DNA from: an uncultured delta proteobacterium
GTDB lineage: Bacteria; Myxococcota_A; Polyangia; Polyangiales; Polyangiaceae
DNA length: 64,000 nt
Direction: 5' to 3'
NCBI GenBank assembly: GCA_963827955.1
Contig: CAWHDJ010000018.1
Location: 1,245,297 to 1,309,296 of the forward strand
Shown piece after piece: positions 2,472 to 37,585 of this stretch. Each line of letters starts with the position of its first letter. The first letter of the stretch is position 1. The notes beneath the pieces are model-generated. The model made no database searches and had not been told where the DNA came from. It saw only the letters and a program-made list of their open reading frames with translations. Made by a program: the position numbers and the translations under genes.

Positions 2472-2687
2472 CTAAATCAACGAGCACAATCCTCGTTCAA
2501 GGAGCCGCTGAGCAACGTATGGAACCCCGGGCGTGAGCCCGCGGACCGGAGCCGCATGCGTCAGCACGCGGAGGCCGCGGCACAGCCCCCTGACGTCATG
2601 GTCCCCGCGCTCACGCGCGAGGCTCCGGTCCGCGGGCTCACGCCCGTGGGTTCCATCGTTGTGTCAGGATCGCGCTCGGCCATTTAG
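2472..2687. repeat. MITE-like palindromic element, family 1, copy 1 (about 215 bp). It has terminal inverted repeats and a nested 40-bp stem.
   Basis: Nearly identical to 37373..37585. TIRs ctaaatcaacgagcacaatcct / aggatcgcgctcggccatttag. Inner stem caacgtatggaaccccgggcgtgagcccgcggaccggagcc with its exact reverse complement ggctccggtccgcgggctcacgcccgtgggttccatcgttg. Confidence 0.8.
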
Positions 2688-3069
2688 CGTCCTGCGCGCA
2701 CGCCGTTGTTCGACGTACTGCGCGATCAAGACAGCGACGTCTGCGACGGCTGCAACCTCAAGCACCATGGGCTGCCTCCGCGCGTGCTGCTCGGTCAGCG
2801 GGCTCCGGCGCGGCGTGCCTGGCGCGTACGACGACGGCGACGAGCACGACCGCGAGCGCGAGCGCGATGATCGCGACACGCGAGCGCCGGACCGTGAGGC
2901 GCGCGAGCATCACGCGAGAACGCGACGCCGCCCCGGTGTGGTGTCCGACGATGCGCACGCAGCCCCAGCCGGACCGGGGCGAGCGCCGCCCGAGCGCCGG
3001 GCAGGATGCAAGGCGGCGCCCCGGTGCCGGATGAGGTTTGTAAACAATCCCGGAAAGGCGCCGGCGCGC

Positions 3070-3655
3070 CGGGAGAAGTCACGGGCGCGCTGGGAGAAGT
3101 TACGAGAGGGACGGGAAGAGACAGGAGAGGGTCGCGAAGAGACAGAAGAGGGACGGGAAGAGACAGGAGAGGGTCGCGAAGAGGCAGAGGAGGGTCGCGA
3201 AGAGACAAGAGAGGGACGTGAAGAGGCAGAAGAGGGTCGCGAAGAGACAAGAGAGGGTCGCGAAGAGGCAGAAGAGGGTCGCGAAGAGACAAGAGAGGGT
3301 CGCGAAGAGGCAGAAGAGGGTCGCGAAGAGACAAGAGAGGGTCGCGAAGAGGCAGAAGAGGGTCGCGAAGAGACAGAAGAGGGTCGCGAAGAGACAAGAG
3401 AGGGACGCGAAGAGACAGAAGAGGGTCGCGAAGAGGCAAGAGAGGGTTGCGAAGAGACAGAAGAGGGTCGCGAAGGGACAGAATAGGGTCGCGAAGAGGC
3501 AAGAGAGGGTCGCGAAAAGACAGAAGAGGGTCGCGAGGAGACAGAAGAGGGGCGCGAAGAGACAAGAGAGGGTCGCGAAGAGACAGAAGAGGGTCGCGAA
3601 GAGACAGAAGAGGGACGCGAAGAGGCAAGAGAGGGACGGGACCGCCGGGAGCAGG
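3070..3655. repeat. Tandem array of about 28 copies of a 21-bp unit (consensus gggtcgcgaagagRcaRRaga). It is open in all six frames and encodes heptads whichever frame is read.
   Basis: Directly visible periodicity of 21 bp. On the plus strand it reads EEGREET / KRQKRVA heptads, on the minus strand PLLSLRD / SRPSSVS heptads. No spacers. Confidence 0.85.
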
Positions 3656-3699
3656 AACGGGAGCGACGGGAGACCAGCGCGGGGCGCGCTCCCGCGTGA

Positions 3700-4437
3700 C
3701 CTGTAACCGCCCGCGGTCGCCGTCGGTGGTCCACTCGCGATCGGTGTGGGTACACGGATGGACAGGTCGACGCCCAGACACTCACGCTCTTTGTCGGCGG
3801 CTGCGGCAAGTCCACCCTGCTCGGATGCATCCACCGCGATCTCGACCCCGCCTCGCACCTCGTCGTCTACTCCTCGCTCACGACCCTCGGGCCCTTCGGC
3901 CTGCTCTCCAGCCTCGTCGCCAAGCTCGGCATGCGGCCCCGCCGCTTCGAGGGCGAGACCGCCCAGGACCTCATCGCGCATTTGCGCGGCTCGTCCAAGA
4001 GCGTCGTCCTCGTCCTCGACGAGGCCCACCTCATGCCCGACGCCTCGCTCGACGACCTGCGCCTGCTCACCGCCGACAGCATCGACAAGAAGAGCCCCTT
4101 CGCCCTCGTGCTCGCTGGCCAGCCTCTGCTCCGCGAGCGGCTCGCCGAGCCCCAGCATTATGCGCTCGCGCAGCGCATCACGGTGCGCGTACGCCTGCGG
4201 CCGCTGACCGAGAGCGAGGCCGTGCTCTTCCTCGACAAGCACATGCGCGCCGCCGGCGCCACGAAGAACCTCTTCGAGCCCAACGCCGTCACGCCGCTCT
4301 TCCAGCACAGCCGCGGCATCCCGCGCCTGCTCCAGAACCTCGCCCTCGGCGCCCTGCTCGCCGCCGCCAACGCCAACAAGAAGCTGGTCGACACCGACTC
4401 CGTGCAGCAGTCGTTGCTCGATGCGGAGGCGCCATGA
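3700..4437 (+). CDS. ExeA/TniB-like AAA+ ATPase (AAA_22 type). The N-terminus is truncated: there is no start codon, and the frame opens immediately after the tandem-repeat array.
   Basis: Walker A LFVGGCGKSTLL at about 3790; Walker B VVLVLDEAHLM; C-terminal GIPRLLQNLALGALL, typical of ExeA-like ATPases associated with mobile elements. There is a stop at about 3697 and no ATG/GTG before the P-loop. Confidence 0.6.
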   Translation, partial: PVTARGRRRWSTRDRCGYTDGQVDAQTLTLFVGGCGKSTLLGCIHRDLDPASHLVVYSSLTTLGPFGLLSSLVAKLGMRPRRFEGETAQDLIAHLRGSSKSVVLVLDEAHLMPDASLDDLRLLTADSIDKKSPFALVLAGQPLLRERLAEPQHYALAQRITVRVRLRPLTESEAVLFLDKHMRAAGATKNLFEPNAVTPLFQHSRGIPRLLQNLALGALLAAANANKKLVDTDSVQQSLLDAEAP

Positions 4438-4601
4438 AACACACCACCCACGTCTACGCCGCGCGACTGCCCAATCCCGCTCCGCTGCTCGACATCGCCG
4501 AAGAGCGACCGCTGCCAGCCGAGCACGCGCCCGAGGCCGGAGCGGTGGGCGAGCGCGAATCACCGCGCATGATTCTCGAACAACATCAGGCTGGCCGTTG
4601 A

Positions 4602-5222
4602 TCATGCGGCTTGCTGGATGACAGGCCCTGCGCCGGTAACCCGCCGCCAGACGTACCGGAGGAGGTACGCGCGGGCATTGCCGAGCAGGGCCTTCATGGT
4701 CTTGCAGCGGTGGTTGCGGGTGACATTGGCGTGCAGGTCCTGCCAGACGCGCTCGATGCGGTTCGCGTCGGGGCAGTAGGGCGGCAGGAAGTGCAGGACG
4801 ATGCGACCGCCGAGCTCTTCGAGGGTGCGGCGGGTCATGTGGGCGGAGTGGATGGCGTAGTTGTCGACGACGAGGTGGATGCGCCGGGCGACGGTGCCGT
4901 AGTGCTTGGCGAGATCTCGCAGCAGCGCGCAGAAGAGCGCAGCGTCTTTGCGCGCGAGACCCGTCGTGTGCAGCGTCCCGGTGCGGACGTCGAGGGCGCC
5001 GGCCAGGTAGAACTTCTCGTTCTTGCCCGGCGTGACGACGCGGCGCTGCTGACCGGGGAGCATCCAGTCGCGACCAATCTTCGGGTTGAGGTGGATGTCG
5101 ACTTCGTCGGCGTAGAGCACGGGCTCGGTTGCGCTCGCGCGCTCCTCCAGAGCGCGGATCTCGGTGAGCCGGGCCTGGCGCGGATTGCGCTTCCAGGGGC
5201 AGAGGACGACGGGTTTGGGCAT
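4602..5222 (-). CDS. IS630-family transposase, DDE catalytic part (orfB)
   Basis: …GRIVLHFLPPYCPDANRIERVWQDLHANVTRNHRCKTMKALLGNARAYL, the DDE_3 C-terminal signature. Confidence 0.8.
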   Translation of the reverse strand: MPKPVVLCPWKRNPRQARLTEIRALEERASATEPVLYADEVDIHLNPKIGRDWMLPGQQRRVVTPGKNEKFYLAGALDVRTGTLHTTGLARKDAALFCALLRDLAKHYGTVARRIHLVVDNYAIHSAHMTRRTLEELGGRIVLHFLPPYCPDANRIERVWQDLHANVTRNHRCKTMKALLGNARAYLLRYVWRRVTGAGPVIQQAA

Positions 5223-5229
5223 GCCGAGC

Positions 5230-5485
5230 CGTGCGCCGAGAAGGCACCGTCCGCCTTGGGCCTGCCGTTGCGGTGTCGCTTGTCGTAGAGGCCCGCGACG
5301 CCCTCCGCCACGTACGCGTGCCCCGCGCGCACGACCGTCGAGACGGCGATGGCCAGGATCTCGGCAATCTTGGGGCTACTCATGCCTCGGCCGAGCAAGG
5401 CGACCGCGTAGAAGCGCATCGCCGTGGCAAAGTCGCCGGCCTTGCGGACGATCCGCATCAGAAGGCGGCGCTCCGCCCCGTCCAT
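5230..5485 (-). CDS. IS630-family transposase, N-terminal HTH part (orfA). It is fused to orfB by a frameshift.
   Basis: MDGAERRLLMRIVRKAGDFATAMRFYAVALLGRGMSSPKIAEILAIAVSTVVRAGHAYVAEGVAGLYDKRHRNGRPK, the winged-helix of Tc1/IS630 transposases. Confidence 0.65.
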
Positions 5486-5615
5486 TTGGGGTACGATGTT
5501 CACGCGGGACTCCTGGTCGTTGGGGTGCTTGGCAGCTCCCAAACCGACGAGGGGGCCCGTCTATTTCCATCGAGAAACTACGTGTTGATCGAGATCTCTG
5601 CGCGGTGATTCCAGC

Positions 5616-8028
5616 TCAGGGCGCGTAGCGCACGATCGCTTCCGAGGGGATGAAGCTCCCCGTGTACGGGGGCTGCGGCAGGACCGTCCCCTGGCCGGGG
5701 TCGAACGCGGGGTCGCTGCTCGCGACGACGAGGGCTCCGCAGGCGTCGATACCCGCGAGGTACTGGCCGGTGATGGCGAAATCGCGGCCCCACACGTACG
5801 TGCCCGAGGGCGCGTAGCGGGCGACGACCGTATCGTGGCTGGCCGCCGTGATCGCCCCGCCGCCGAGATCCGCCGTACCGCTCCAGCCCGTCCGGAGGTA
5901 GACGTCGCCTGTTTCCACCACCGTCACCCAGGGGCCCGCGAAGGTGACGCCGGCGCCGCCGAAACGCCTGCCCCAGCGGTAGTTGCCCGCGACGTCGAGC
6001 TTGCCGAGGACGAAGTCCTGACTCCCAATCGGCGCCAGCGGCCCTCCGCCGAAGTCGAACGGCGCCGCGCCGACGAGGCCGCTCACGACCTCGCTGCCCG
6101 CCGAGTCGAGGGCGACGGCGAGCCCGGGCGCCGGCAGGGACGTGCCGAAGACGCAGCTCCCCGAAGGATCGAGGCGCGTGACGAAGGTGCTGCCGCCGGC
6201 CGCCGCCGACGACGCGCCGCAGCCCAAATCGAGGCTCGTGGTCGCGGACGCGCTCACGACCACGCCCTGCGTGTCGGCGACAATCGCGGGGACGGCGGGG
6301 AGGACGTGGCTGAAGATACAGGTCGACGTCGGCCCGAGGTGCGCGACGTAGCCGCTCGTCGATCCGGTGGGGGTCATGGGGCCGCAGCCGAGATCGAGGG
6401 TCGCAGTGAGCGCGCCGGAGACGTACGTGCCGCCCGCCCCGTCGGAGACCGGTGGATAGGATGGAGTCGCGACGATCTGCCCGCTCGGCGTGGAGGCCTG
6501 GGTGGCGAGGAGCCCGCAGCAGTAATCGCCCACGAGGCCCGCGGGACACGACGACACGTTCCCTTGGCTCGGCGCGCCGCCGTTCGCGGGTTGCTCCTCG
6601 AACCAGGCACCCCCGCAGCTCGCCGGGTCGAAGGGGATGCCGCACGACATGCAGCCGCCGATCTGGACGACGAGATCGTTGCCGGGCTGGATCACGAAGC
6701 TTTCGTCAGAGGAGACGCTCTTGATTTCGAAGTCGAGGTTCACCTGCGCGCCCTGCCCCGCGACCTGATAGTACCCCGACATGAGCAAGGCGCCCGAACC
6801 GTTGAACCGCTCGTAAGCGGCGACGTTGGTATTGGTTGGCCCCGCCGGGGGTAGATTGCCACGGCACCCCATGCCGATCGCGACATCGCCGGTGGGGCCG
6901 AGGGCCAGCTTGAACGTCGGCAGCGGGGTGAAGGAGGGCGGCGTGTCGTTACACGCCGCGTCCTGCGCCACCTCGACCCAGAACGATGTCGCCGCCGTTC
7001 TTGGTTGGATCGACCCCGACGCTGCAATCCGCCCAGCTCGTCGTGGGGCCCCCGACCGGCGGCCCTGGGTACGTCCCGCCGCTCGACGACGACGCGGAAG
7101 ACGAGCTGCTCGCGCTCGTGCTGGCGCTCGTGCTCGTGCTCGTGCTCGCGCTGGCGCTCGTGCTCGTGCTCGTGCTCGCGCTGGCGCTCGTGCTCGTGCT
7201 CGTGCTCGCGCTGGCGCTCGTGCTCGCGCTGGCGCTCGCGCTGGTGCTCGCGCTCGTGCTCGCGCTTGTGCTCGCGCTGGTGCTCGCGCTCGTTCCCGTG
7301 CTCGCGCTCGCGCTCGTCACCGCCGCGCCGCCCGCAGCGCCTGAACCCGTGGTGCTCGCCGTCGCGGCGCCGCCCATCCCACCCGAACCCACCGTGGCTC
7401 CACTCGCGGCGCCGCCCATCCCCGTCCCCGCGCTCGTGCTCGTTCCCGTGCTCGTGTTCGTTCCCGTTCCCGTGCTCGCGCTCGTCACGGTCGCGCCGCT
7501 CGCAGCGCCCGAACCCGTGGTGCTCGCCGTCGCGGCGCCGCCCATCCCACCTGAACCCACCGTGGCCCCACTCGCGGCGCCGCCCATCCCCGTCCCCGTT
7601 CCCGTGCTCGCGCTCGTGCTCGCTCCCGTGGTCGTGCTCGTTCCCGTGCTCGCGCTCGTGATCGTTCCCGTTCCCGTGCTCGTGCTCGTCACGGTCGCGC
7701 CGCCCGCAGCGCCCGAACCCGTGGTGCTCGCCGTCGCGGCGCCGCCCATCCCACCTGAACCCACCGTGGCCCCACCCCCGGCGCCGCCCATCCCCGTCCC
7801 CGTGCTCGCGCTCGTGCTCGTGCTCGTGGTCGTTCCGGTGCTCGTGCTCGTGCTCGTTCCGGTGCTCGTGCTCGTTCCCGTGCCCGCGCCGGTGCTCGTC
7901 CCCGCGCCCGTGCTCGTGCTCGACGCCCCGCCGGCGCCTTCTACGGTGCCCGAGCTGCACCCCCCTCCCACGCACGCCACCAGCACGAGCGGCAGCCCCA
8001 CGGCACGAAGCAACGGTCTGCGTCCCAT
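5616..8028 (-). CDS. Secreted lipoprotein: signal peptide, a roughly 300-aa Ser/Thr/Gly/Ala low-complexity linker, and a C-terminal SBBP-type beta-propeller repeat domain. There is a frame break near 6975-6990.
   Basis: MGRRPLLRAVGLPLVLVACVGGGCSSG at 8028. STGTGTSTS… repeats. C-terminal repeats AGNYRWGRRFGG / SGTYVWGRDF, typical of the myxobacterial beta-propeller repeat (SBBP). Two ORFs (6949..9144 and 5616..6971) overlap in different frames. Confidence 0.6.
7090..7960. repeat. Imperfect short tandem repeats (gctcgtgctcgc / gcgctggcgctc units) that encode the S/T/G/A linker of the lipoprotein
   Basis: Visible periodic GCT-CGT-GCT repeats. The antisense frame reads LALVLVLAL…. Confidence 0.6.
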
Positions 8029-8184
8029 CACGGTGTCGTTCAAGTGAAGCTCCTCTCTCGGCGACAGTTCGATGCACGAGCCCGGCGCCGCATTCACTGT
8101 CATTCTCGCACACCGTCGTCGCCGGGTCGTCGCCGCGTCCGAAAACGGCCAGACACCCCCCCGACGGCGCGTTACAAAGAGGGC

Positions 8185-8394
8185 GTGCAGCTCGATGGGG
8201 ACACCTGCTACCGCGCCCTCGAGGCGCGCGACGCGCGCTTCGACGGCGTGTTCTACGTGGGCGTGGCGACGACCGGCGTCTATTGCCGCCCCGTCTGCCG
8301 CGCCCGCACCCCCCGGCGCGACCGCTGCGCCTTCTACCGCACCGCCGCCGAGGCCGAGCACGCCGCGTTCCGCGCCTGCTTCCGCTGCCGGCCG
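8185..8394 (+). pseudogene. ada: N-terminal Zn-binding domain of an Ada-like methylphosphotriester-DNA methyltransferase. The gene is truncated by an IS630 remnant.
   Basis: VQLDGDTCYRALEARDARFDGVFYVGVATTGVYCRPVCRARTPRRDRCAFYRTAAEAEHAAFRACFRCRPEL matches the Ada metal-binding domain (FxYAVxTTGIYCRPSC…FRPCKRC). The ORF then reads directly into IS630 transposase sequence. Confidence 0.6.
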
Positions 8395-8627
8395 GAGCTC
8401 GGCGGTCGCATCGTCCTGCACTTCCTGCCGCCCTACTGCCCCCGACGCGAACCGCATCGAGCGCGTCTGGCAGGACCTGCACGCCAATGTCACCCGCAAC
8501 CACCGCTGCAAGACCATGAGGGCCCTGCTCGGCAATGCCCGCGCGTACCTCCTCCGGTACGTCTGGCGGCGGGTTACCGGCGCAGAGCCTGTCATCCAGC
8601 AAGCCGCATGATCAACGGCGCCGCTCC
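8395..8627 (+). mobile_element. IS630 remnant: the 3' end of the transposase gene plus the terminal repeat. It is inverted relative to the copy at 4597-5560.
   Basis: …GGRIVLHFLPPYCP-(C5 frameshift)-DANRIERVWQDLHANVTRNHRCKTMRALLGNARAYLLRYVWRRVTGAEPVIQQAA. It is about 95% identical to the 3' end of the orfB reverse complement, and the shared end is gcctgtcatccagcaagccgcatgatcaacgg. Confidence 0.75.
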
Positions 8628-9359
8628 CTACCAGGGGAAGTAGTACGCGTGGTACGCGTAGCGCGGGAGCAGGTTCTCGAACATCGCCCGCTCCTCCGGG
8701 TGCGCCGCGAGGCGCGAGTGCCAGTGCTGGTGGAGCGCCTGGAGCGAAACGACGCTCGGCACCCCGTATCGGATCCGGATCGCGTCGACCGTGTGCCGCC
8801 ACGCTCTGAGCTCGGCGCAGATTGACGCGTACGTCGTGAGATCCACGTCGCGGACGTAGACGGTGGCCGTGGCGCCCGCGCCCTCGAAGGGCGTCGCCGC
8901 GACGATCTTCTGGAGGCTCTCGTCCCCGAGGGGGAGCGTCTCGCCCCACGTGCTGCGCATCACCGGGATCTTCTCCGTCAGCGCGCAGCGCTTCTGCGGC
9001 GGCAGCTGGTCCTTCGACACGAAGGGGAGCTTGCCGCGCTCGCGCCAGGCCTCGGGCGAGAGGTCGAGGGCCATCGCGGTGCTCGCGAGGCCCGCGGGCG
9101 GGGGCGCGACCGCAGGCGATGGCACCGGCTCGGGCACGGGGCATGCCGGCGCCTCGTGGGCCTGCGGCGCGGCACCCTCGCCCCCGTTGTCCTTTACGCC
9201 GCCCGCCGCGCTCGCGCGGAGGCGCGCGAGGATGGCGCGCTCCATGCGCTCTTCGTCCTCCGACGCCTCCGGCTCGGCCTGGTCCTCGGCGCCGAGCAGC
9301 TCCCGGACGATCCTCGGCTGGGGGCCGCCGTGGTGGATCCAGAGATCGAGGTCGTTCAT
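8628..9359 (-). CDS. Hypothetical protein (243 aa)
   Basis: Start MNDLDLWIHHGG at 9359. The C-terminal half (…TVYVRDVDLTTYASICAELRAWRHTVDAIRIRYGVPSVVSLQALHQHWH…) looks globular. The N-terminal 800 aa of listed ORF 8628..11816 is antisense junk. Confidence 0.45.
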   Translation of the reverse strand: MNDLDLWIHHGGPQPRIVRELLGAEDQAEPEASEDEERMERAILARLRASAAGGVKDNGGEGAAPQAHEAPACPVPEPVPSPAVAPPPAGLASTAMALDLSPEAWRERGKLPFVSKDQLPPQKRCALTEKIPVMRSTWGETLPLGDESLQKIVAATPFEGAGATATVYVRDVDLTTYASICAELRAWRHTVDAIRIRYGVPSVVSLQALHQHWHSRLAAHPEERAMFENLLPRYAYHAYYFPW

Positions 9360-9623
9360 GTGGCCTCGCCTCCCCGCGCCTCGAGCTGCCGGATGAGCTC
9401 CCCTGAGCCTCTCCCTCGCCCAGCCGAGGTGCCGCTTGAAGGTCCCGAACGGGATGCCCAGGACGCCCGTCCCCAGCCCGAAGACGATTTCGAAAAAAAG
9501 TTCGCCGGAAGCGATCCGTTTTGGAGGCGACCTCCGACTAACTCTACAGAGGCGGAGATCGCCGCCTCGCACGGACCCCGGCAACGGGGTTCTGGACCTG
9601 CTCGTCCACGAAAGGAGAAGCCC

Positions 9624-10292: not shown

Positions 10293-10391
10293 GCGCGGCG
10301 GCAGGAGAGCGCCCGCGCCCTCACGCCCCAGGTCGGGCGTGACGGGCGCGGGCCAAGCTCCTCCCGCCCCTCGGGTCTCAGCTCCCGCCCC

Positions 10392-11918
10392 ATGCGCGCG
10401 CCCCCCAAGCTCCTCCTCGCCTCCCTCGCCCTGGCCGCCTGCGCCGAGCGCCCGCTGCCGCCTCCGCCCGAAGCGCCCTCGCAGCCGCAGCCGCAGCGCG
10501 TCGAGCGAGCCCCGGTCCCTGAGGTCGTCGCCGACGACGGGCCTCCCCCCGGCGCGACGCCCGTGGTCCTCCGTGGCATCCCGCACGTGCGGCAGAAGCC
10601 CGACTTCTGCGGCGAGGCGTGCGCCGAGATGGTCCTCGCCTGGATGGGTCGGAAGGGGACGCAGGACGATGTGTTCGACCTGTCCGGCATCGACCCGGCG
10701 CTCGGCCGCGGGGCCATCACGCCGGAGCTGAAGCGGGGTCTCACGCGCCTCGGCTTCCGGGTCGGCGACGTGTGGTACCCCGTCCAGGCGGCGCACGCCC
10801 CTGCGGAGCTGTCGCGGCAGTTCGCCGCGGTGTACGCCGACCTCGCGCGCGGCGTGCCCTCGATCGTGTGCATGCACTACGACGAGACCCCGCACACGAC
10901 GGAGCACTTCCGCCTCGTGGTCGGCTACGACCCGGCGACGGACGAGGTGATCTACCACGAGCCGGCGGAGGACCACGGCGCCTACCGGCGGATGAAGCGC
11001 GCGCGCATGCTCCGCCTCTGGCCGCTGAAGTACGACCCGGCGCGCTGGACGCTCATCCGGTTCCGCCTCGATCTCGACCCCGCCGCCGCGCGCGCCGCGG
11101 GCCCTCCCGAGCGGGAGCTGAACCACGGCCACACGGCCGCCGAGTACGCGCAGCACGTGCTGGCGCTCCAGCGGCGCCTGGGGCCCGGCTTCACCGTGCG
11201 GCTGGAGCCGCCCTTCGTCGTCGCGGGCGACGAGCCGGAGGACATGGTGCGCGCCCGGACGGTGGAGGTCGTGCGCTGGGCCGCGGCGAAGCTCCGGGCG
11301 GACTTCTTCGAGAAGGAGCCCGCGCGCATCCTCGACGTCCTGCTCTTCAAGGACGCGCGCAGCTACCGCACGCGGGCCATCGACCTGTTCCACAGCGAGC
11401 CCACGACGCCCTACGGCTACTACACGTCGGAGAACGGGGCGCTCGTGATGAACATCGCGACGGGCGGCGGCACGCTCGTCCACGAGATGGTCCACCCGTT
11501 CGTCGAGGCCGACTTCCCGGACGCGCCGCCGTGGCTCAACGAGGGGCTGGGCTCGCTCTTCGAGCAGTCCGATGAGCGCGACGGGCACATCGTCGGCCTC
11601 ACCAACTGGCGCCTCGCCGGCCTCCAGCGCGCCATCGCCGAGCACCGCGTGCCGCCCATCGAGGGGCTGCTCCTCGCCGACGCCCACGCGTTCTACGACG
11701 AGGACCAGGGCACCAACTACGCGGTGGCACGCTACCTCTGCTACTACCTCCAGGAGCGCGGCCTGCTCGTGCGCTTCTACCATGAGTTCAGGGCGCACGC
11801 GGCGAGCGACCCGCACGGGATCGCGACGCTGAAGGGCGTGCTCGAGGAGACGGATCTCGCCGACTTCCAGCGGCGCTGGGAGGGGTACGTGGCCCGGCTG
11901 CGCTTCCCGCAGCGCTAG
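10392..11918 (+). CDS. Secreted lipoprotein with an N-terminal C39-like cysteine peptidase domain and a C-terminal HExxH zincin-like domain (DUF1570-like)
   Basis: Signal LLLASLALAACAE. Peptidase_C39_2 motifs: catalytic Cys in PDFCGEACAEMVLAWMG, and His in TTEHFRLVVGYDPATDEVIYHEP. C-terminal LVHEMVHPF…NEGLGSLFE, a zinc-metalloprotease-like motif. Confidence 0.7.
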   Translation: MRAPPKLLLASLALAACAERPLPPPPEAPSQPQPQRVERAPVPEVVADDGPPPGATPVVLRGIPHVRQKPDFCGEACAEMVLAWMGRKGTQDDVFDLSGIDPALGRGAITPELKRGLTRLGFRVGDVWYPVQAAHAPAELSRQFAAVYADLARGVPSIVCMHYDETPHTTEHFRLVVGYDPATDEVIYHEPAEDHGAYRRMKRARMLRLWPLKYDPARWTLIRFRLDLDPAAARAAGPPERELNHGHTAAEYAQHVLALQRRLGPGFTVRLEPPFVVAGDEPEDMVRARTVEVVRWAAAKLRADFFEKEPARILDVLLFKDARSYRTRAIDLFHSEPTTPYGYYTSENGALVMNIATGGGTLVHEMVHPFVEADFPDAPPWLNEGLGSLFEQSDERDGHIVGLTNWRLAGLQRAIAEHRVPPIEGLLLADAHAFYDEDQGTNYAVARYLCYYLQERGLLVRFYHEFRAHAASDPHGIATLKGVLEETDLADFQRRWEGYVARLRFPQR

Positions 11919-11957
11919 TACTCCTGCGTCATTGGCCCCATAGACATAAGCGAATCA

Positions 11958-12047
11958 ACCTACCGAACCGGAAGCGGCAGCGCCCGGCCGCGAGCGGTAG
12001 CGAGCCGGCTCGCTTCCGCTCGCGGCCGGGCGCTGCCGCTTCCGGTT
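11958..12047. terminator. 90-bp near-perfect palindrome between convergent genes. It is a bidirectional terminator or REP-like hairpin.
   Basis: ccgaaccggaagcggcagcgcccggccgcgagcgg…agcgagccggctcgct…ccgctcgcggccgggcgctgccgcttccggttcgg. The arms are exact reverse complements, and the centre (agcgagccggctcgct) is itself palindromic. Confidence 0.6.
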
Positions 12048-12123
12048 CGGATGGCTGTACCTGACCCTGGAGGAGGGCGCGGGCGAGCGCGACGGCGGTA
12101 CAGTGACGCAGTGATGCTGGGGA

Positions 12124-13558: not shown

Positions 13559-13574
13559 CGGCGAAGCTCCTCGC

Positions 13575-24627: not shown

Positions 24628-24660
24628 GCGCGCAGCCCCCGCCCTGAGCCGGGGCAGGGC

Positions 24661-24840
24661 AAACAAACCGAACCGCGCCCGGAGCGAGCCGCCGTTCACG
24701 GCGGCTCGCGGAGGAAGCGGGTGCCCGGGCCCTGCAAGACGGCCCCTGTCTTTCCAGAGGCAGGATGGCTAAAGCTGAGGCCCCCGCTTCCTCCGCGAGC
24801 CCGCCTTCGGCTTGCTCGCTCCGGGCGCGGTTCGGTTTGT
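24661..24840. repeat. Nested palindromic intergenic element, family 2, copy A (about 180 bp). It abuts the start codon of the next gene.
   Basis: 27-bp TIRs acaaaccgaaccgcgcccggagcgagc / gctcgctccgggcgcggttcggtttgt. Inner inverted repeat cgcggaggaagcggg…cccgcttcctccgcg. The central region is unique. Confidence 0.7.
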
Positions 24841-29083: not shown

Positions 29084-29250
29084 AAACGCCATCCTAACCG
29101 CGACCGGAGCGAGCCGCCGAAGGCAGGCTCGCGGAGGAAGCGGGGGGTGCGGCTTCGCATGACGCGCCGTCGAGCAGACCTGCGGCCCCCGCTTCCTCCG
29201 CGAGCCGCCGTGAACGGCGGATTGCGAAGGGCGCGGTTCGGATGGCGGTT
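29084..29250. repeat. Nested palindromic intergenic element, family 2, copy B
   Basis: aaacgccatcctaaccgcgaccggagcgagccgcc…cgcggaggaagcggggggtgcggcttcgcatgacgcgccgtcgagcagacctgcggcccccgcttcctccgcgagccgccgtgaacggcgg… The core is almost identical to 46326..46490. Confidence 0.7.
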
Positions 29251-29378: not shown

Positions 29379-31872
29379 ATGAGCGAGCGAACGGAGCCGG
29401 CGTGGCTCGACTTACTGGGCATCGCTTTGCTCGCAGCGGTCTACCTCGGCCTCGCCCGGCTGGGGCTCGCGATGGACGCCATCGGGGGGTTCGCGACCCT
29501 GGTCTGGGTGCCGTCGGGCATCGCGCTCGCCGTGATCCTGAGGTTCGGGCGTCGCCTGTGGCCCGGCGCCTTGATCGGCTCCTTCATCGCCAACCTGCTC
29601 TCCGCCGCGCCGGTCCCGGTCGCGCTCGCGATCGGCGCCGGCGACGCGATCGAGGTGCTGACCGCCGCCCTCCTGCTCGAGCGCGCCTGCTACCGCCCCG
29701 CGCTCGACCGCCCGCGCGACGTGCTCGCCCTGGTCGCGTTCGCCGCGTTGCTCGCGTCCGCGCTCGGCGCCTCCATCGGGGTGCTCGCCCTGCTCGCCGG
29801 GCGCGTCCTCCCGGCGGCGACCGCCGCCGTCGCCTTTCGCGCGTGGTGGCTCGGCGACGCCGCCGGGATCCTCGTCGTGACGCCGCTCGCGTCCGTCGGC
29901 TGGGCGCACCTCCCCCCGCTCACGGTGAAGCGCGCGCTCGAAGCGGCCGGCGTGCTCGCGGCGCTCTTCGCCGTCGCCGCCTTCGTGTTCTTCGGCCCGG
30001 GCCCGCAGCCCTCGCCGTTCTGGCACCCGTACCTGGTCTACCTCGTGCTCCTCTGGGCGGCGCTGCGCTTCGGCCAGCACGGCGCGACGATGACCGTCTT
30101 CTTCGCCGCGCTCCTGGCCATCTGGGGGACCGCGACGGGCCACGGCCCCGCGCTCCGGCCGACGCTCCACGAGAGCCTCGCCAACCTCCAGCGATTCATG
30201 GTCGTCTTCGCGGTGACGGCCCTCTGCCTCGGCGCCGTCATCGTCCAGCTCCAGCGCGTCTCGGTGGAGCGCGCGGGCCTCCTCGACGCGCAGCGGGAGG
30301 CGCTCGCGCGGATCGGCGCCGCGGAGCAGCGCGGGGCGCTCCTCGCCCTCCTGCTCGACCAGTCGAACGACGCCGTCGTGGTCCGGGAGATCGGGGACGG
30401 CATCGTCTACTGGAACCAGGGCGCGGAGCGGCTCTACGGCTTCTCCGCCGGCGAGGTGCGCGGCAAGACCTCGCGCGCGCTCCTGCACACCGAGCTCCCG
30501 AGCGGGCTCCCCATGTCGAGCGTCGACGCCGCCCTCGTGGCCGACGGGCACTGGGACGGCGAGCTCTTCCAGACGACGCGCGACGGGCGCAGGCGCTGCG
30601 TCGAGAGCCGGCAAGTGCTCAGCCGCTTCGGCGACGGGCCGGCGCTCGTGCTGGTGACGAGCCGCGACGTCACGGCGCGCAAGGAGGCGGAGGCGGAGCG
30701 GGAGCAGCTCCTCGAGAGCGAGCGCGCGGCGCGTGGCCTCGCGGAGCGGGAGGCGCGCAGCAAGGACGAGTTCGTGGCCACGCTCTCGCACGAGCTTCGC
30801 ACGCCCCTCAACGCCATCCTCGGCTGGGCCTCGATGCTCCGCGGCGGGCGGCTCGACGCCGAGGCGTCCGCGCGGGCGCTCGAGACCATCGAGCGCAACG
30901 CGCGCGCCCAGGCGCAGATGGTCGAGGACCTGCTCGACGTGAGCCGGATCGTCTCGGGCAAGCTCCGCGTCGACGTCCGGCAGATGAACCTCTGCGAGGT
31001 CGTCGAGGCCGCGATCGCGTCCCTCCAGCCGGCCGCCGCCGCCAAGCGGATCCGGATTCGAGCGGGTGATCGACCCGCTGGCGTGCGAGGTCGAAGGCGA
31101 CCCGGCGAGGCTCCAGCAGGTGGTGTGGAACCTCGTCGGCAACGCGATCAAGTTCACCCCGAAGAGCGGGCACGTGCGCGTCGTCGTGCAGAGGTCCGGC
31201 TCGTACGCGGAGGTCGTCGTGCGCGACGACGGCCCCGGGATCGCCGCCGAGTTCCTCCCCCACCTCTTCGAGCGCTTCCGCCAGGCCGACGCATCGAGGA
31301 CGCGCCGCCACGGCGGCCTGGGCCTCGGGCTCGCGCTCGTGAAGCACCTCGTGGAGATGCACGGCGGCACCGTCGGCGTGGAGAGCGAGGGCGAGGGGAA
31401 GGGGGCGACGTTCGTCGTCCGCCTGCCGATCTGCCCCGTGGTCTCGCGAGGCACGGAGCCCAGCGCGCCGGCGGTCCGCGAGTCGCTCAAGGGGGTGAAG
31501 GTGCTCGTGGTGGACGACGAGGAGGACACGCGCGAGCTCGTCCGGCGCGTGCTGTCGGAGAGCGAGGCGGAGGTCGTGGCGGTCGGCTCCGCCGCCGAGG
31601 CGCTCGACGAGGTGCCGCGCTTCCGCCCCGACGTGCTCCTCAGCGACATCGGCATGCCGCACCAGGACGGCTACCAGCTCCTCCGCGCGCTCCGGGCGCT
31701 CGGCGAGGACCGGGGCGGCAAGACGCCCGCCGCCGCGCTCACCGCGTACGCGCGCCCCGAGGACCGCCTCCACGCCCTCCGCGCCGGCTACCAAATCCAC
31801 GTCCCCAAGCCGGTCGACGTGACCGAGCTCTGCACCGTGGTGGCGAGCCTGGCGGGGCGCATCTCGACATGA
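29379..31872 (+). CDS. Hybrid sensor histidine kinase (MASE1 membrane sensor, PAS, HisKA, HATPase_c, receiver). It has a frameshift near 31060.
   Basis: Seven or more TM helices at the N-terminus. H-box LSHELRTPLNAILGW. G-boxes in the second frame (DDGPGI…GGLGLGLALV). Receiver with D (VLLSDIGMP) and K (IHVPKP). Confidence 0.75.
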
Positions 31873-31918
31873 GGTCGAAGGGAGAGCGCCGAGGCCGCGC
31901 AAGGTATACGCTTGGGGC

Positions 31919-32350
31919 GTGGACGAAGGGTCTCCCCGCGGAAGCGTGCGCATCTTGGTGGTCGACGACGACGCCGACCATCGCGCCACCCTCTGCAGCG
32001 TTCTGGAGGAGGCCGGCTACCGCGTCGAAGGTGCCCCGCAGGGGCGCGCGGCGCTGGACCGCATGCTCGCCGGCGACTTGCCGGATCTCGTCCTGCTCGA
32101 CATGTGCATGCCGGTCATGGACGGCTGGGCGTTCTCGGCAGAGCTCCACCAGCACCCGCGCCTCTCCCGGATCCCCGTCGTGGTCATGTCCGGACGGGGA
32201 GAGTGCACGCTCAGCGCAGCCCCCGTCTCCGCGGGGTACCTCCTCAAGCCGCTCGATCTGCACCAGCTCCTCGAGATGATCTCCACCTGCCTGTGGAGGT
32301 ACGAGCAGCGGAAGATGGCCAGAGGCGGCGGCGACGAGACGCTCGGCTGA
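31919..32350 (+). CDS. Single-domain response regulator (receiver)
   Basis: VRILVVDDDADHRATL…LVLLDMCMPVMDG…YLLKPLD. Confidence 0.7.
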   Translation: MDEGSPRGSVRILVVDDDADHRATLCSVLEEAGYRVEGAPQGRAALDRMLAGDLPDLVLLDMCMPVMDGWAFSAELHQHPRLSRIPVVVMSGRGECTLSAAPVSAGYLLKPLDLHQLLEMISTCLWRYEQRKMARGGGDETLG

Positions 32351-32370
32351 GAGCGACGCCGGGGGCGCGG

Positions 32371-33501
32371 TCAGGACAGCTCGCCGTCGATCGCCGCGTG
32401 GAGCGCGACGAGCGCCTTCTCGAAGCGCCCGAGGCGCACGCCCGGGTTGTGCCGCACGCCGCGCTGGATGCCCTCGCCGATGGCGAAGTCCTCCTCGAAG
32501 ACGCGCAGCAGGAGGGCGAGGTTCTTCTCCCAGTAGGCGCGCGCCTTGTCGGTCGCCGGCGCGCTCGGCACCAGCATGACCTGATCGATCCACGTCTCGT
32601 CCGTGCCGTGCGGATGGAAGGTGAACAGCACGACGTGGTCGGGCTCGACGAGCACCATCGCGTTCGGGAAGAGGTAGTACACCACCACCGCGTGCGGGCG
32701 TAGCTCCCAGCTCTCTTCGGGCGCGGTGGAGAGGTCCTTGATCGAGCGCCTCGGCGCGACCAGGCGGAGGTTCCGGCCGAACGACTCGAAGAGGCCCGCG
32801 TGGTCGAAGAAGGCCGGGTAAATCGAGTCCCTGTGCGCGACGCGGAGGTGGTAGCCCTCGCAGAACCCTTCGATCGCCACCTTCCAGTTCATCGCCCGGC
32901 GCCAGCGGCGGCGGTCGAAGGGGACGTGGGAGGCGAGCGCGAGGCCGGCGATGTCGTCGCCGAGGGGCGGCTCGTCGCTGGGGGACGGCATCGCGACGGG
33001 CGCGCCCGCCGACGGCGTGACCCAGACGAGCCCGTGGCTCACCTCGACCGGGAGCGGCACGAGGCCGCTCGCGTCGCGCACGAGCGTCGGGAACCCTTCC
33101 TCGTGCGGCACGCCGAGCAGGCGCCCGTCGAGGCGGTAGCTCCAGCCGTGGTAGGGGCAGACGAGGGCGCGCGCCGAGCCGGTCTCCGCCGCGCACAGGC
33201 GCGTGCCGCGGTGCCGGCACACGTTGAGGAAGGCGCGCAGCGCGCCGTCGTCGCCTCGGACCAGGAGGACGGGCAGGCCCCCGGCGTCGATCGAGAGGAA
33301 GTCGCCCGGCCGCGCGACCTCACCGACGTGCGCGATGAGCACGGGGTGCCGGCCGAGGAGCGCCTCCTCGCGGCGGAGGCGCGCTGGATCGTGGTAACGC
33401 CGAGCGTCAATCACGACGTCTTGCTCGGCCATGTCGGTCGTCCGCGCCTCGATCTGGGCAAGGAGGCGACGCACGGTCGCGCGCTGGGTCTCTGGGCGCA
33501 T
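32371..33501 (-). CDS. Rieske non-heme iron oxygenase, alpha subunit-like
   Basis: Rieske CRHRG…CPYHGW. Mononuclear-iron region EGYHLRVAHRDS…; about 375 aa. Confidence 0.75.
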   Translation of the reverse strand: MRPETQRATVRRLLAQIEARTTDMAEQDVVIDARRYHDPARLRREEALLGRHPVLIAHVGEVARPGDFLSIDAGGLPVLLVRGDDGALRAFLNVCRHRGTRLCAAETGSARALVCPYHGWSYRLDGRLLGVPHEEGFPTLVRDASGLVPLPVEVSHGLVWVTPSAGAPVAMPSPSDEPPLGDDIAGLALASHVPFDRRRWRRAMNWKVAIEGFCEGYHLRVAHRDSIYPAFFDHAGLFESFGRNLRLVAPRRSIKDLSTAPEESWELRPHAVVVYYLFPNAMVLVEPDHVVLFTFHPHGTDETWIDQVMLVPSAPATDKARAYWEKNLALLLRVFEEDFAIGEGIQRGVRHNPGVRLGRFEKALVALHAAIDGELS

Positions 33502-33763
33502 GCGCCCCGAGTATACCCGTGGAAGGCCGCCGGCTGGGGAACGCGACCCCCACTGGATCGATCGCCGCCCACCCTCTCGCCGCATGAACACCGCGTTTCT
33601 ACCGCGAAAGTCGGGGTCCGGAGCCTGGCACGCCGCTCGCCAAGGGAGCGGCCATGCTCGACCGGACCCGCTTCGCCGCTGCGACACGTATCCTCCTCGG
33701 CGCCCTCGCCTTCCCCGCGATCCTCGCCGGCTGTATCGGCGTCGAGGACCCGAACGAGCCCCT

Positions 33764-34582
33764 TCACTCCCCCGGGACGATGATCGCTTCCCCGCTCCGC
33801 ATCCGGCCGGGGTTGAACAGGTTCGCCTTCCGGTGGTGGTTCGCGTGCCAGTAGATGCCGTGCCACAGCACGTTGCCGACGCGGTAGTACCCCGTGTTCA
33901 AGTTCACGGGGCGGAAGTCGCGGCTGGGCGAGAACGCGTTGTGCGTCGACCAGTTGAAGTGGATGAGGTGCAGGATCCCGAGGATCGTGGCCGGCACGAA
34001 GAAGCGGAAGAACGCCAGCGGGCCCAGGAACGTGTACCAGCAGGCGAGGAGCGCGAGCATCGTCGAGAAGCTCAGCGCGGCGCGGATCTTCTCGAACCGC
34101 CGCGTCACGGACGAGTTGCCGTAGAGGTCGAAGTAGGCGGCCTGGAGCTGCCGCTCCACGTTCACGAGCGTGAAGACGACGTAGCGCCAGTAGCTCGGCA
34201 TCACCGGGTGCGGGTCCTTGACCGTGTCGTCGGAGTAGCGGTGGTGCCGCTGGTGGATCACCTCCCACGAGGCGAAGCGCGTGAGCACCACGACGCCGCA
34301 GATCTCGCCGACGATCCGGTTGACCGCGCGCGGGAAGTTCCCGTGCGAGCAGTTGTGGATCCAGACGCTGCACAGGATCTGCGCCTGGCAGACGAGGGGC
34401 AGGAGCAGCCAGTAGCGCGCGTCCCACGTCTCGATGAGCGGCCGGTGGCCGGCGTAGCGCATCGCCGCCACGAGCGCGACGCAGAGCACGAAGTAGAAGC
34501 CGTCGTACCAGACGTAGAAGTAGCGGTTCTTCCGGAGCTGCGTGTTGGGGAGCGAGGTCAGCGTGGAGACGATGGCGGTCAC
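33764..34582 (-). CDS. Membrane fatty-acid desaturase-family protein (three His boxes)
   Basis: HNCSHG, HQRHHRY, HGIYWHANHH, with four predicted TM helices. Confidence 0.7.
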   Translation of the reverse strand: MTAIVSTLTSLPNTQLRKNRYFYVWYDGFYFVLCVALVAAMRYAGHRPLIETWDARYWLLLPLVCQAQILCSVWIHNCSHGNFPRAVNRIVGEICGVVVLTRFASWEVIHQRHHRYSDDTVKDPHPVMPSYWRYVVFTLVNVERQLQAAYFDLYGNSSVTRRFEKIRAALSFSTMLALLACWYTFLGPLAFFRFFVPATILGILHLIHFNWSTHNAFSPSRDFRPVNLNTGYYRVGNVLWHGIYWHANHHRKANLFNPGRMRSGEAIIVPGE

Positions 34583-34867
34583 TCGGGGCGCTCCTTCGTA
34601 AGAAACTTCCCGGGGGTGCCTTCGGACTCTCCCGACGCTCCCCCGCAGATCAGCCCGGATATCCTATTTGTCGCGGGCCGTCTACAAAGCCCCGCTCGCT
34701 GGATCAGAGGTTGCTACCGCGAAAACCGCTTCGCGGCGCGACCGCTGCACAGACGCTGAGGGGGACACTGCGAAGCTTGATTCGCGCTTTCCCGATCGAA
34801 TGTGCCGTGTCGGAAGCTCGACGTTGGCGCGTTGTCCGACTGGGGCGATTCTGATAAACGGGGGATC

Positions 34868-35806
34868 GTGACCAAGGCAGAGCCCTGGCTCGTCAAGCAC
34901 CCGGCCGAGTGGCGGCAGATCGGCATCGTCGCCGTGTACCTCGGCCTCCTCGGTGCCATGTACGCCGTGCCGGCCTGCCGCAACGTCGTCTTCCTCGGAG
35001 CTGCCTGCTACTTCAGCTTCCTCAACGCGGTGGTCATCCACAACCACCTGCACCAGGCCATCTTCCGCAGCCGGCGCCTCAACATGCTCTGGCGCTGCGT
35101 GCTCAGCTTCGGCTCGCTCTACCCGGCCTCGGCGAACATCCCCTCGCACAACCTGGTCCATCACCACTTCGACGACGACGGGCAGCCCGACTGGGCCGCG
35201 CCCGAGCACGTCTCGTTCCGGTGGAACCTGCTCAACCTGGTCCACTTCCCCAACGTCGCCGGGCCCAACACCTTCGCCGGCGTCCAGCGCTGGGCCCTGC
35301 TCTCCGGCAAGAAGGAGTTCGTGCGCCAGTACCGCATCGAGCTCGCCTTCGCGTTCGGCCTGACGGGGCTCCTCGCCCTCCACGACTTCTGGACCACGCT
35401 CTTCTTCGTCGTCATCCCGCAGCTCTACGGCGCGCGCGGCATCCTGCGCGTCAACCTGCTCCAGCACGACGGCTGCGACACGCGGAGCGACTGGAACCAC
35501 TCGCGCAACTTCGTCGGGCGCTTCTACAACTGGATCATGTGCAACAACGGCTTCCACACGATCCACCACAACCGCGCGGGCCTCCACTGGTCGACGCTGC
35601 GCGACGCGCACGAGCGCGACGTCGTTCCGCGCGTCGACCCGCGCCTCGACGAGCCGAGCATGGTGCTCTACCTGCTCCGCACCTACGTCTTCAACTTCCG
35701 CCGGCCTGCAGCGTTCGACGTCGCGGCGGCCGAGCGGCGCGGCCCCACGATCGATCTCGCGTCGCGCTCCGTGCGCCGCGCCGAGGCGGAGGCCGCCGGG
35801 GCTTAG
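34868..35806 (+). CDS. Membrane fatty-acid desaturase-family protein (second copy, divergent from the first)
   Basis: HNHLH, HNLVHHH, HTIHHNRAGLH. GTG start assumed at VTKAEPWLVK. Confidence 0.65.
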   Translation: MTKAEPWLVKHPAEWRQIGIVAVYLGLLGAMYAVPACRNVVFLGAACYFSFLNAVVIHNHLHQAIFRSRRLNMLWRCVLSFGSLYPASANIPSHNLVHHHFDDDGQPDWAAPEHVSFRWNLLNLVHFPNVAGPNTFAGVQRWALLSGKKEFVRQYRIELAFAFGLTGLLALHDFWTTLFFVVIPQLYGARGILRVNLLQHDGCDTRSDWNHSRNFVGRFYNWIMCNNGFHTIHHNRAGLHWSTLRDAHERDVVPRVDPRLDEPSMVLYLLRTYVFNFRRPAAFDVAAAERRGPTIDLASRSVRRAEAEAAGA

Positions 35807-35825
35807 GGACATCGAGGGGGGAGTC

Positions 35826-36602
35826 GTGCTGTCGAAGGAAGTCATGGGCGCGCTCGCGCTCGCGATCCTCTGGGTCAACGTGCTGCTCATCGCAGCGGCG
35901 GCCGCCAAGCAGGCCGCTGCGCTCCTCCGCCGCCGCGCGGCGCTCGCCGGCGTGGTGCGCGGGCGCGTGACACGCGGGGCCGGTCCCGGCGGGGCGCTCG
36001 CCGCGTACCGGGTCGAGCAGGTCGGGCGCGCGGCGGGCGAGGACGACATCCTCTTCCACGACCGGCGCGCCGCGGGCGAGGTCTTCGGCGGAGTCGTCGC
36101 GCCCGACGGCGGCGAGCCCGTCACGGTCGTGGCCGCGGCGTCCGCGGAGGTCTGGCTCGACGCCGAGGCGCTCTCGCTCGCGGGGGCGTGCCCCTCGGCG
36201 TCCGAGTTCGCCCGCGCCCACGCGTCGGCGCGCAAGGTCCAGGGCTTCGATCGCACCGTGGTCGCGACGGTCGGCGAGGGGGCCGAGGTCTACGTGAGCC
36301 CGCGCGGCGACGTCCTCGTGGCGACCATGGATCCCCGCGCGCTCCTCGCGCGGAAGGCCGCCCTCTCCGCGGCCTTCGTCGCCGGCGAGATCCTCGCCGC
36401 CGCCGCCTGTACCACGCTGGCCCTCTGGCCCCCGCGCTTCGGCCTCGTGAGCATCGCCGGCGCCGCCCTCTCCCTCGGCTTCTTCCTCGGCGTGCAGCCC
36501 GCGGGCACCGCCGTCCGCGACGCCGTGCTCGTCCCGAGCCGCGCCTTCCTCCGCGGGCGCTGGTCGCGCCCGTCGGCGGCGCCGATCCCGAGCGAGGCGT
36601 AG
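35826..36602 (+). CDS. Hypothetical integral membrane protein
   Basis: N- and C-terminal TM helices (ALALAILWVNVLLIAAAAA; ILAAAACTTLALWPP…AGAALSLGFFLGV). Confidence 0.4.
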   Translation: MLSKEVMGALALAILWVNVLLIAAAAAKQAAALLRRRAALAGVVRGRVTRGAGPGGALAAYRVEQVGRAAGEDDILFHDRRAAGEVFGGVVAPDGGEPVTVVAAASAEVWLDAEALSLAGACPSASEFARAHASARKVQGFDRTVVATVGEGAEVYVSPRGDVLVATMDPRALLARKAALSAAFVAGEILAAAACTTLALWPPRFGLVSIAGAALSLGFFLGVQPAGTAVRDAVLVPSRAFLRGRWSRPSAAPIPSEA

Positions 36603-37277
36603 CTACGCGCGCGCCATCTTCGGCGCGTAGAAGAGCCTGACGAGCAGGCTGTCCCCGCTCGCCTGCACGCCGGCCCGGCTCGGGTCCTCGATCCCGAGAT
36701 CGCGCCGCACCGCGGCGAGCGGCGCGCTCAGGCAGCGCTCGAGCGGCGCGGCCATCACCAGCGCGGCGCGCTCGCCCATCTCGAGGCCCACGCGGACGTT
36801 GTGCAGGATGCGGGGCGCCTGGGTCGGCGAGAGGGCGGCGTAGAGGAGGCTCGCGAAGCGGAGCATCGCGCGCGAGACGGGCGCCGAGCCCTGCCCGACG
36901 TTGAACGCGAGCACGCCCATCTCCCCGGCGAGGCCGGCGTCGAAGCCGGTCAGCACGTGGTGCAGGTCGTGCGTCTCCGTGTACCGGAGCGCGTACACGT
37001 TGCCCCGGAAGCGCTCCCGCACGGAGGCGCTGACGTCGAGCGGGACGATGCCGTTCTCGTCGAGGAAGTGGGCGTACGCGTACCCGAGCGTGCCCTCCGG
37101 CATCCGGCGCAGCGCGGGGAGGTCGGGCGCCAGCGCATCGACGGGCAGCCCCTGCAGCTCGCCGGCGACGGCCGGCGCCGCCTCGGTGAGCGCGTCCATC
37201 TTGAGCACCACGACGTCGCCGAGCGGTGCGCCCGAACGGTAGGCGCGCAGCGCATGGAGCAGCTTGCCGAAGTTCAT
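36603..37277 (-). CDS. Coq4-family protein (ubiquinone biosynthesis COQ4-like, HDxxH metal site)
   Basis: …YTETHDLHHVLTGFD…, the HDxxH…E signature of Coq4. Confidence 0.5.
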   Translation of the reverse strand: MNFGKLLHALRAYRSGAPLGDVVVLKMDALTEAAPAVAGELQGLPVDALAPDLPALRRMPEGTLGYAYAHFLDENGIVPLDVSASVRERFRGNVYALRYTETHDLHHVLTGFDAGLAGEMGVLAFNVGQGSAPVSRAMLRFASLLYAALSPTQAPRILHNVRVGLEMGERAALVMAAPLERCLSAPLAAVRRDLGIEDPSRAGVQASGDSLLVRLFYAPKMARA

Positions 37278-37372
37278 GGCCGAAATGTGGGGACGGGCGG
37301 CGTGCTGTGCAAGTGGACACCTCCCCGGCGCTCCGACGCGGACGGCAGCGTTCAGAAGATGGGGCATTCGCG

Positions 37373-37585
37373 CTAAATCACCGAGCACGATCCTCGTTCA
37401 AGGAGCCGGGAGCAACGTATGGAACCCCGGGCGTGAGCCCGCGGACCGGAGCCGCGCGCGTCAGCACGCGGAGGCCGCGGCACAGCCCCTGACGTCATGG
37501 TCCCCGCGCTCACGCGCGAGGCTCCGGTCCGCGGGCTCACGCCCGTGGGTTCCATCGTTGTGTCAGGATCGCACTCGGTGATTTA
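37373..37585. repeat. MITE-like palindromic element, family 1, copy 2
   Basis: About 97% identical to 2472..2687 over its whole length, with the same TIRs and inner stem. Confidence 0.8.

Follow-up and report, generated by a model that had tools for sequence, protein, structure and literature searches.

The window analysed here, a single stretch of 64,000 nucleotides (64 kb) from an uncultured delta proteobacterium of the Polyangiaceae with a genome of 72% G+C, contains two copies of a palindromic intergenic repeat, copy A and copy B, which we interpret below as a miniature inverted-repeat transposable element (MITE), and, about 2 kb from copy A, a defective insertion sequence (IS) of the IS630 family. 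The nearest relatives of the window's proteins are labelled Polyangiaceae, Minicystis and Myxococcota, which together with the G+C content points to a Polyangiales-like bacterium that lacks a close reference genome. Copy A lies at the end of a putative coding open reading frame (ORF) at 1930-2475, and copy B sits between a Coq4-like gene (36603-37277, minus strand; Pfam Coq4) and a divergent lipoprotein gene starting at 37596, its right-hand TA only 10 nt upstream of the start codon. Both copies had been proposed from the sequence in an original prediction and are indeed present; their exact limits, given in Table 1, were fixed by the empty-site comparison described below. Over about 212 aligned columns, 8 substitutions and 2 indels of one base separate them (95.2% identity), and their similarity breaks off exactly at the termini, the flanking DNA being unrelated beyond a TA. 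Repeat finding across the whole window returned this pair and, within each copy, inverted repeats of 60 nt that correspond to its two arms, and searches with the core and the terminal repeat, with 3 mismatches allowed, revealed no third copy in the 64 kb. The ends begin AATCACCGAGCACGATCC and form terminal inverted repeats of 19 bp, of which 17/19 positions match for copy B and 14/19 for copy A, with a looser match that continues to about 28 nt. Copy B has stops in five of the six reading frames, and its one open frame has no homologue among 5.8 billion proteins.

The site of copy B can be compared with its unoccupied counterpart. The nearest homologue of the Coq4-like protein in the public protein collection, 80% identical, is encoded on the metagenome contigs L009 (Ga0134126_10181417) and L010. 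On either side of copy B these contigs follow the window collinearly, and the collinear part takes in the signal-peptide end of the divergent lipoprotein gene. Where the window has copy B, both contigs are shorter by exactly 210 bp and have a single TA within GCTAGC: the empty site reads ...GATCGGATGC-TA-GCGTGGACG... (core context GGATGC-TA-GCGTGG), and the filled site ...GCTCGGATGC-TA-[AATCACC...208 bp...GGTGATT]-TA-GCGCGAATG... (context GGATGC-TA-[208 bp]-TA-GCGCGA). Because the empty site lacks exactly 210 bp and holds one TA, copy B represents an insertion of 208 bp that duplicated its 2 bp target, the TA within GCTAGC, which answers the call of the original prediction for a target-site duplication. 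The full copies that have been sequenced, A, B and one on the metagenome contig L006, share these C-TA...TA-GC flanks, and in none of the three could a duplication longer than 2 bp be seen by eye. Two further contigs covering 20-33 kb around Coq4 orthologues of 69-70% identity (L011, L012) carry no copy of the element, and L016 is too short upstream to inform on its presence. We also observed ~96% identity to L010 over a stretch of some 80 nt (37283-37362) upstream of the Coq4-like gene, the proteins being only 80% identical; this conserved non-coding block is possibly a divergent promoter or leader, and copy B falls between it and the lipoprotein start codon.

The ends of the element have a counterpart in the IS near copy A, whose termini read AATCACCGCGCA... 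at 4558 and, inverted, at 5610. On its minus strand, ORF 4835-5542 matches HTH_29 and ORF 4602-5222 matches Pfam DDE_3 and NCBIfam IS630 (NF033545, E = 3e-42). It is 93-96% identical to full-length relatives of 1201-1204 bp and is defective because of an internal deletion of ~140 bp (full-length positions ~385-521), which takes out the stretch from the first helix-turn-helix (HTH) domain to the catalytic domain and with it the second HTH domain. The transposase of the full-length relatives is 349-350 aa long and 93-95% identical to the DDE ORF; three such 1201-1204 bp elements with matching ends occur on metagenome contigs (L013-L015), and C-TA precedes 6/6 of their ends. A CTAG-type context is thus common to all six of these ends and to 3/3 sequenced copies of the element. 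The pattern AATCACCGNGCRNNRTYCT, with up to two mismatches, is found six times in the window against 0.14 expected, and these six are the four ends of copies A and B and the two ends of the IS, nothing else. When the left end of copy B is aligned with the right inverted repeat of the full-length relatives, 22/28 positions agree (blastn: 90% over 21 nt). The check for a cognate transposase with matching ends, suggested in the original prediction, thus gave a positive result with this IS.

Further copies are found in unrelated surroundings. A scan of JGI metagenomes with the exact 21-nt core returned five loci (L004-L008), three of which (L004, L007, L008) we rejected as chance matches to a single arm. 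The real ones are a core without termini on L005, to which we return, and a full copy of 208 bp on the soil contig L006 (1906-2113), 94% identical to copy B, with similar terminal repeats and with flanks unrelated to the window. A fourth full copy, distinct from these three, is seen as the peptide ITERDPDTTMEPTGVSPRTGASRVSAGTMTSGAVPRPPRADARGSGPRAHA within a spurious ORF of 355 aa (P0244) that runs through it; P0244 was the sole meaningful match in an exhaustive search of 1.8 billion protein representatives, P0243 and P0245 being discarded as unrelated repetitive proteins. Viral contigs and plasmids yielded none in scans with the core and terminal repeat or by distant blastn. The contigs L005, L006 and the empty-site contig L009 all derive from one metagenome, Ga0134126; should L006 and L009 stem from one organism, that relative would carry the MITE family, though not at its Coq4 site.

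Taken together, terminal inverted repeats, a TA duplication, IS630-like ends, small size, the absence of coding capacity and an occurrence in several unrelated contexts lead us to regard the element as a non-autonomous MITE of the IS630/Tc1-mariner type that duplicates TA at CTAG, with a probability of about 0.88; the MITE-like nature first proposed is upheld by the matching IS ends and the TA duplication. Several observations weigh against this reading. The window contains no intact transposase gene; its sole IS copy carries the internal deletion and has CG and CC at its flanks instead of TA. By blastn, the MITE and the full-length ISs have only their terminal 21-28 nt in common, with no internal similarity. 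Only one empty site was found (that of L009 and L010), only four full copies are known across all data searched, two of them from the 64 kb of the window, and the exact 21-nt core gave no copy among 185,579 representative genomes, one per species, where two single-arm matches in actinobacteria were due to chance. Lastly, the right end of copy A reads AATGGCC where AATCACC would be expected, and such degraded ends may mean that this copy is no longer mobile. The proposal that near-identity reflects recent mobilisation was accordingly only partly right: the copies are close, but they have diverged by 5% and copy A has lost the integrity of its ends.

How would such an element move? It encodes nothing, and consists of two terminal inverted repeats of ~19-28 bp (AATCACCGAGCACGATCC...) that enclose a G+C-rich palindromic core of 137 bp. 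It is most likely mobilised in trans by the transposase of the 1.2 kb IS, judging from the near-identical ends: this DDE enzyme of 349-350 aa would bind both ends via its N-terminal helix-turn-helix domains and excise the element, which would then be pasted into the TA of a CTAG (here GCTAGC or CTAGC), duplicating the TA. CTAG being scarce, insertions would tend to occur where genes end or shortly before they start, and an insertion into C-TAG would remake the stop codon and leave the upstream protein unchanged. A simple internal-deletion derivative of the neighbouring IS can be rejected as the origin of the MITE, because similarity in blastn is confined to the terminal 21-27 nt and does not extend past the ends.

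The composition of the window shows how scarce such targets are. Nine CTAG sites are observed against 162 expected from base composition, a depletion of ~18-fold, and TA itself is about 2-fold under-represented (573 against 1247); stop codons account for at least four of these nine CTAGs. Copy A and the copy on L006 directly follow stop codons. Insertion into a C-TAG stop rebuilds a stop: at copy A, the left-hand TA and the A with which the element begins make up the TAA closing the putative coding ORF 1930-2475; on L006, the TA and the first base of the element likewise provide the stop codon of an HD-domain gene (974-1906), here TAG owing to an A-to-G change at the start of the element. The copies thus lie at gene ends because the remaining CTAG sites are scarce and largely stop codons or just outside genes. 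This explains their position better than the link to repeat-rich accessory blocks that had been suggested, and as the relative has its lipoprotein gene without the element, we dropped the idea that the element is a functional member of the neighbouring blocks. Any effects on adjacent genes, such as might arise if the lipoprotein gene at 37596 carries a 208 nt hairpin in its 5' leader, are, we infer, incidental.

Each copy is a long imperfect palindrome. Its stem arms comprise 26 perfectly complementary bases (CGGGCGTGAGCCCGCGGACCGGAGCC) and 9 more past one mismatch, so the perfect 40-bp stem described at the outset was an overstatement; as RNA, the fold has 35 uninterrupted pairs, G-U included. 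The plus strand of copy A folds at -145.8 kcal/mol (z = -12.1) and the minus strand at -155.1 kcal/mol (z = -10.9), with 0/200 shuffles equally stable, which puts the fold well outside chance; both strands fold equally well because the DNA is a palindrome. The loop motif TGACGTCA had been correctly read in both window copies (2591-2598 and 37490-37497), but it is not a conserved feature: the L006 copy has CGACGCCA, and the solo core on L005 also differs. Across the three full copies, a comparison with little power, not one of the 91 predicted pairs shows a change in both partners, and 12 pairs are lost in a single copy. Rfam gave no match at gathering thresholds over the whole window and, for the element itself at E <= 1, only weak Acido-Lenti-1 matches on the two arms (18-19.5 bits against a cutoff of 37), and sequence scans detected no sigma-70-like promoter and no intrinsic terminator in or beside either copy.

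The palindromic core can also stand alone. On L005 (Ga0134126_10187843, positions 2027-2158) it is 84% identical, has the sharp ends ATGGAAC...GTTCCAT and lacks termini of the IS630 type; on one side is an ORF whose end is at 2019, on the other a minus-strand frame, read by eye, that stops inside the palindrome. Its left arm shows four changes that perfect a local hairpin, GCCGGCC-GTGA-GGCCGGC. Because the core also occurs alone, the 208 bp element looks composite, with IS630-type ends around an independently existing palindromic module, a lead that comes from this one solo example. One could go further and imagine a chimera in which a pre-existing module of 132-138 bp, found alone on L005 in a related organism, was captured between IS630-type ends, so that the MITE now spreads a functional hairpin to CTAG stops and gene starts, where it would serve as a terminator, an insulator, an RNA-processing site or a protein-binding cruciform; we consider this rather unlikely.

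The stability of the fold invites other explanations. A structured non-coding RNA gene, or a cis-regulatory RNA, in two paralogous copies would fit the z-score of -12 and the intergenic position of both copies, but the strands fold equally well, no pair is compensated, scans showed no promoter-like site, and the best sub-threshold Rfam score reaches 19.5 bits where 37 are needed; since, moreover, the element is absent from the orthologous site of a relative and flanked by a target duplication, the structured RNA that the original prediction entertained finds no support, and we hold it to be very improbable. It is easier to envisage, and compatible with a transposable origin, that the MITE has in addition been co-opted, its hairpin acting as a terminator, as an mRNA-stabilising or RNase III-processed structure, or as a regulator in a 5' leader. 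Roles of this kind have been reported for MITEs of other bacteria, Correia elements among them (reviewed in PMC2229807). The extreme stability of the fold on both strands, the placement of copy B between the conserved upstream block and the lipoprotein start 10 nt away, the location of copy A and the L006 copy straight after stop codons, and the solo core between convergent genes on L005 would all agree with this. Set against them are the negative scans of both copies and their borders for a sigma-70-like promoter or an intrinsic terminator, the 0/91 compensated pairs with 12 broken in one copy, the unconserved centre (TGACGTCA) and an orthologous locus that functions without the element; on balance, co-option appears unlikely.

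Alternatives that dispense with an IS630-type transposase fare no better. REP and BIME sequences are short imperfect palindromes of about 20-40 nt that spread without target-site duplication, and we know of no reported target-site duplications for REP-type elements. Spread of a palindromic repeat of this sort by a RAYT (IS200/IS605-type) enzyme, or by recombination, could draw on the other G+C-rich palindromic repeats without TA flanks in the window and on the core found alone on L005, to which this route may apply; for the full element, with its 208 bp, its IS630-type ends and its 2 bp TA duplication at CTAG, which fit a DDE cut-and-paste transposase, REP/BIME membership was rejected, and we judge this route highly improbable. 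That the copies are remnants of a segmental duplication, or products of gene conversion with no transposition at all, might be supposed from two copies 35 kb apart in a paralog-rich region. The flanks are, however, unrelated beyond the TA, the empty site is precise, and further copies occur in unrelated contexts in other organisms; the empty-site alignment refutes this idea, to which we attach practically no weight.

A MITE paired with an IS630-family transposase has clear parallels. IS630-family transposases excise their elements by double-strand cuts and insert them into TA, which is duplicated (PMC2170065), and a preference for the TA of 5'-CTAG-3' is announced in the title of Tenzen and Ohtsubo (1991), as listed in PMC2170065. 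With IS630 of Shigella sonnei and ISY100 of Synechocystis the system described here shares the TA duplication, the CTAG context and a transposase with N-terminal HTH and DDE_3 domains (PMC2170065), but those elements are autonomous and 1-1.2 kb long, whereas ours is geneless and has ~21-28 terminal nt in common with its presumed partner IS. The nearest precedent is RUP of Streptococcus pneumoniae, a MITE that is linked to an IS of the IS630 family by the likeness of their ends and by TA as the target (PMC2229807); it is 107 bp long, with 108 copies reported (PMC2229807), and its proposed mover is IS630-Spn1 (Oggioni and Claverys 1999, as reviewed in PMC2229807). Like RUP, our element is small, non-coding and intergenic, has ends that resemble the termini of an IS630-family IS elsewhere in its genome, inserts at TA and would be transcribed into a long stem-loop. 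Unlike RUP, compared by description only, it measures 208-210 bp, has ~69% G+C and a long core that also occurs solo, and has so far been seen in few copies; bacterial MITEs have been described as mostly A+T-rich (PMC2229807).

More distant systems follow the same logic. The Stowaway MITEs of plants are moved by Tc1/mariner-like transposases (Feschotte et al. 2005, as cited in PMC2229807 and PMC2170065). Their short terminal repeats match the element of the mariner-type transposase itself and their interior is unrelated, as we see here; they differ in being eukaryotic, A+T-rich and of very high copy number. Stowaway elements, too, make a TA duplication, and to our knowledge there is no direct sequence relationship between them and the element described here. 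The Correia elements of Neisseria carry outward promoters and RNase III processing sites. Neither these nor an IHF motif were found in our element, for which, in contrast to Correia, a partner IS can be identified. Alike are the terminal TA, the target duplication, the long stem-loop transcript and the frequent position beside gene starts or ends of Correia/NEMIS (PMC2229807); the same review notes an IHF-site motif in some Correia elements and gives RUP as the sole bacterial repeat that then had a proposed IS partner.

Table 1. Positions in the window of the element, its parts and the related insertion sequence.
Feature	Position	Strand	Details
MITE, copy A	2475..2684	.	210 bp, 68.6% G+C, termini degraded
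MITE, copy B	37376..37583	.	208 bp, 69.7% G+C
Palindromic core, copy A	2519..2656	.	ATGGAAC...GTTCCAT, 138 bp
Palindromic core, copy B	37419..37555	.	137 bp
Left terminal inverted repeat and subterminal region, copy B	37376..37403	+	AATCACCGAGCACGATCCTCGTTCAAGG; 22/28 against IS right inverted repeat
Right terminal inverted repeat and subterminal region, copy B	37556..37583	-	reads AATCACCGAGTGCGATCCTGACACAACG on the - strand; 20/28 against IS right inverted repeat
Left TA of target-site duplication, copy B	37374..37375	.	empty-site comparison
Right TA of target-site duplication, copy B	37584..37585	.	empty-site comparison
Left TA beside copy A	2473..2474	.	context C-TA
Right TA beside copy A	2685..2686	.	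context TA-GC
Defective IS630-family insertion sequence	4558..5610	-	1053 bp; two transposase ORFs; ends AATCACCGCGCA...
Fragment, 3' part of a second IS copy	8395..8619	+	225 bp; inverted orientation; 99-100% identical to 4594-4817

The surroundings of these features hold further repeats. The inverted fragment of a second IS copy stands 3.6 kb from the defective one, and together with the CG and CC flanks of the latter it suggests an IS-mediated rearrangement of the segment between the two. A second family of G+C-rich palindromic intergenic repeats, unrelated to the MITE and ~165-185 bp long, occurs at 24660-24840, 29095-29250 and 46330-46490. It has an outer stem of CCGAACCGCGCCCGGAGCG / CGCTCCGGGCGCGGTTCGG and two inner hairpins that vary between copies in a seemingly compensated manner (GAGCCGCCG...CGGCGGCTC versus GTCCCGCCG...CGGGAC), with no TA flanks and no Rfam match. 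A near-perfect palindrome of 102 bp (11956-12057; 92% complementary, no spacer), located ~38 nt beyond gene 10392-11918 and its CTAG stop, ends in CCGAACC...GGTTCGG, similar to the ends of this second family. The lipoprotein gene beside copy B is one of three tandem paralogs (37596-43600) spaced by ~1840 and 1980 bp, each of which needs at least one frameshift for read-through, the first using all three frames within its first 450 nt; these are either pseudogenes or the result of indel errors in G-runs, and elsewhere the 4.8 kb shared with an independent assembly show no indels. Two 21 bp tandem arrays are built of differing units, AGAGGGTCGCGAAGAGACAGA repeated 25 times at 3105-3635 and ATCGGCGGCGCGCTCGATCGG repeated 21 times at 43340-43784; in the former all frames are open, and its putative coding capacity includes heptad peptide repeats such as EGREETE.

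In type, then, this element is textbook, and what is known of transposition is unchanged by it. The particular family nevertheless seems undescribed, as had been surmised: we found no description of it and no Rfam entry, and the literature that we searched contained no MITE described for Myxococcota and no paper pairing MITEs or IS630 with myxobacteria. Its unusual traits are a G+C content of ~69%, a composite build and the use of stop codons as targets. There are practical consequences, too. Repeated or palindromic DNA often breaks short-read assemblies, and an independent assembly from short reads, that of a strain with 99.9% identity to the window, stops 30 nt inside copy B; the element also yields spurious ORFs in gene calls, such as P0244, and the insertion polymorphisms that it marks might serve for strain typing.

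For the Myxococcota, these results add a documented pair of a MITE and its partner IS, complete with a filled and an empty site. They show how a transposon specific for TA within CTAG behaves under an ~18-fold depletion of CTAG, where the sites that are left are mostly stop codons and insertion keeps the stop. Should the hairpin prove to be a captured functional module after all, the targeting of stops and the rebuilding of TAA would make it possible to rewire gene ends almost without harm in a genome of very high G+C content.

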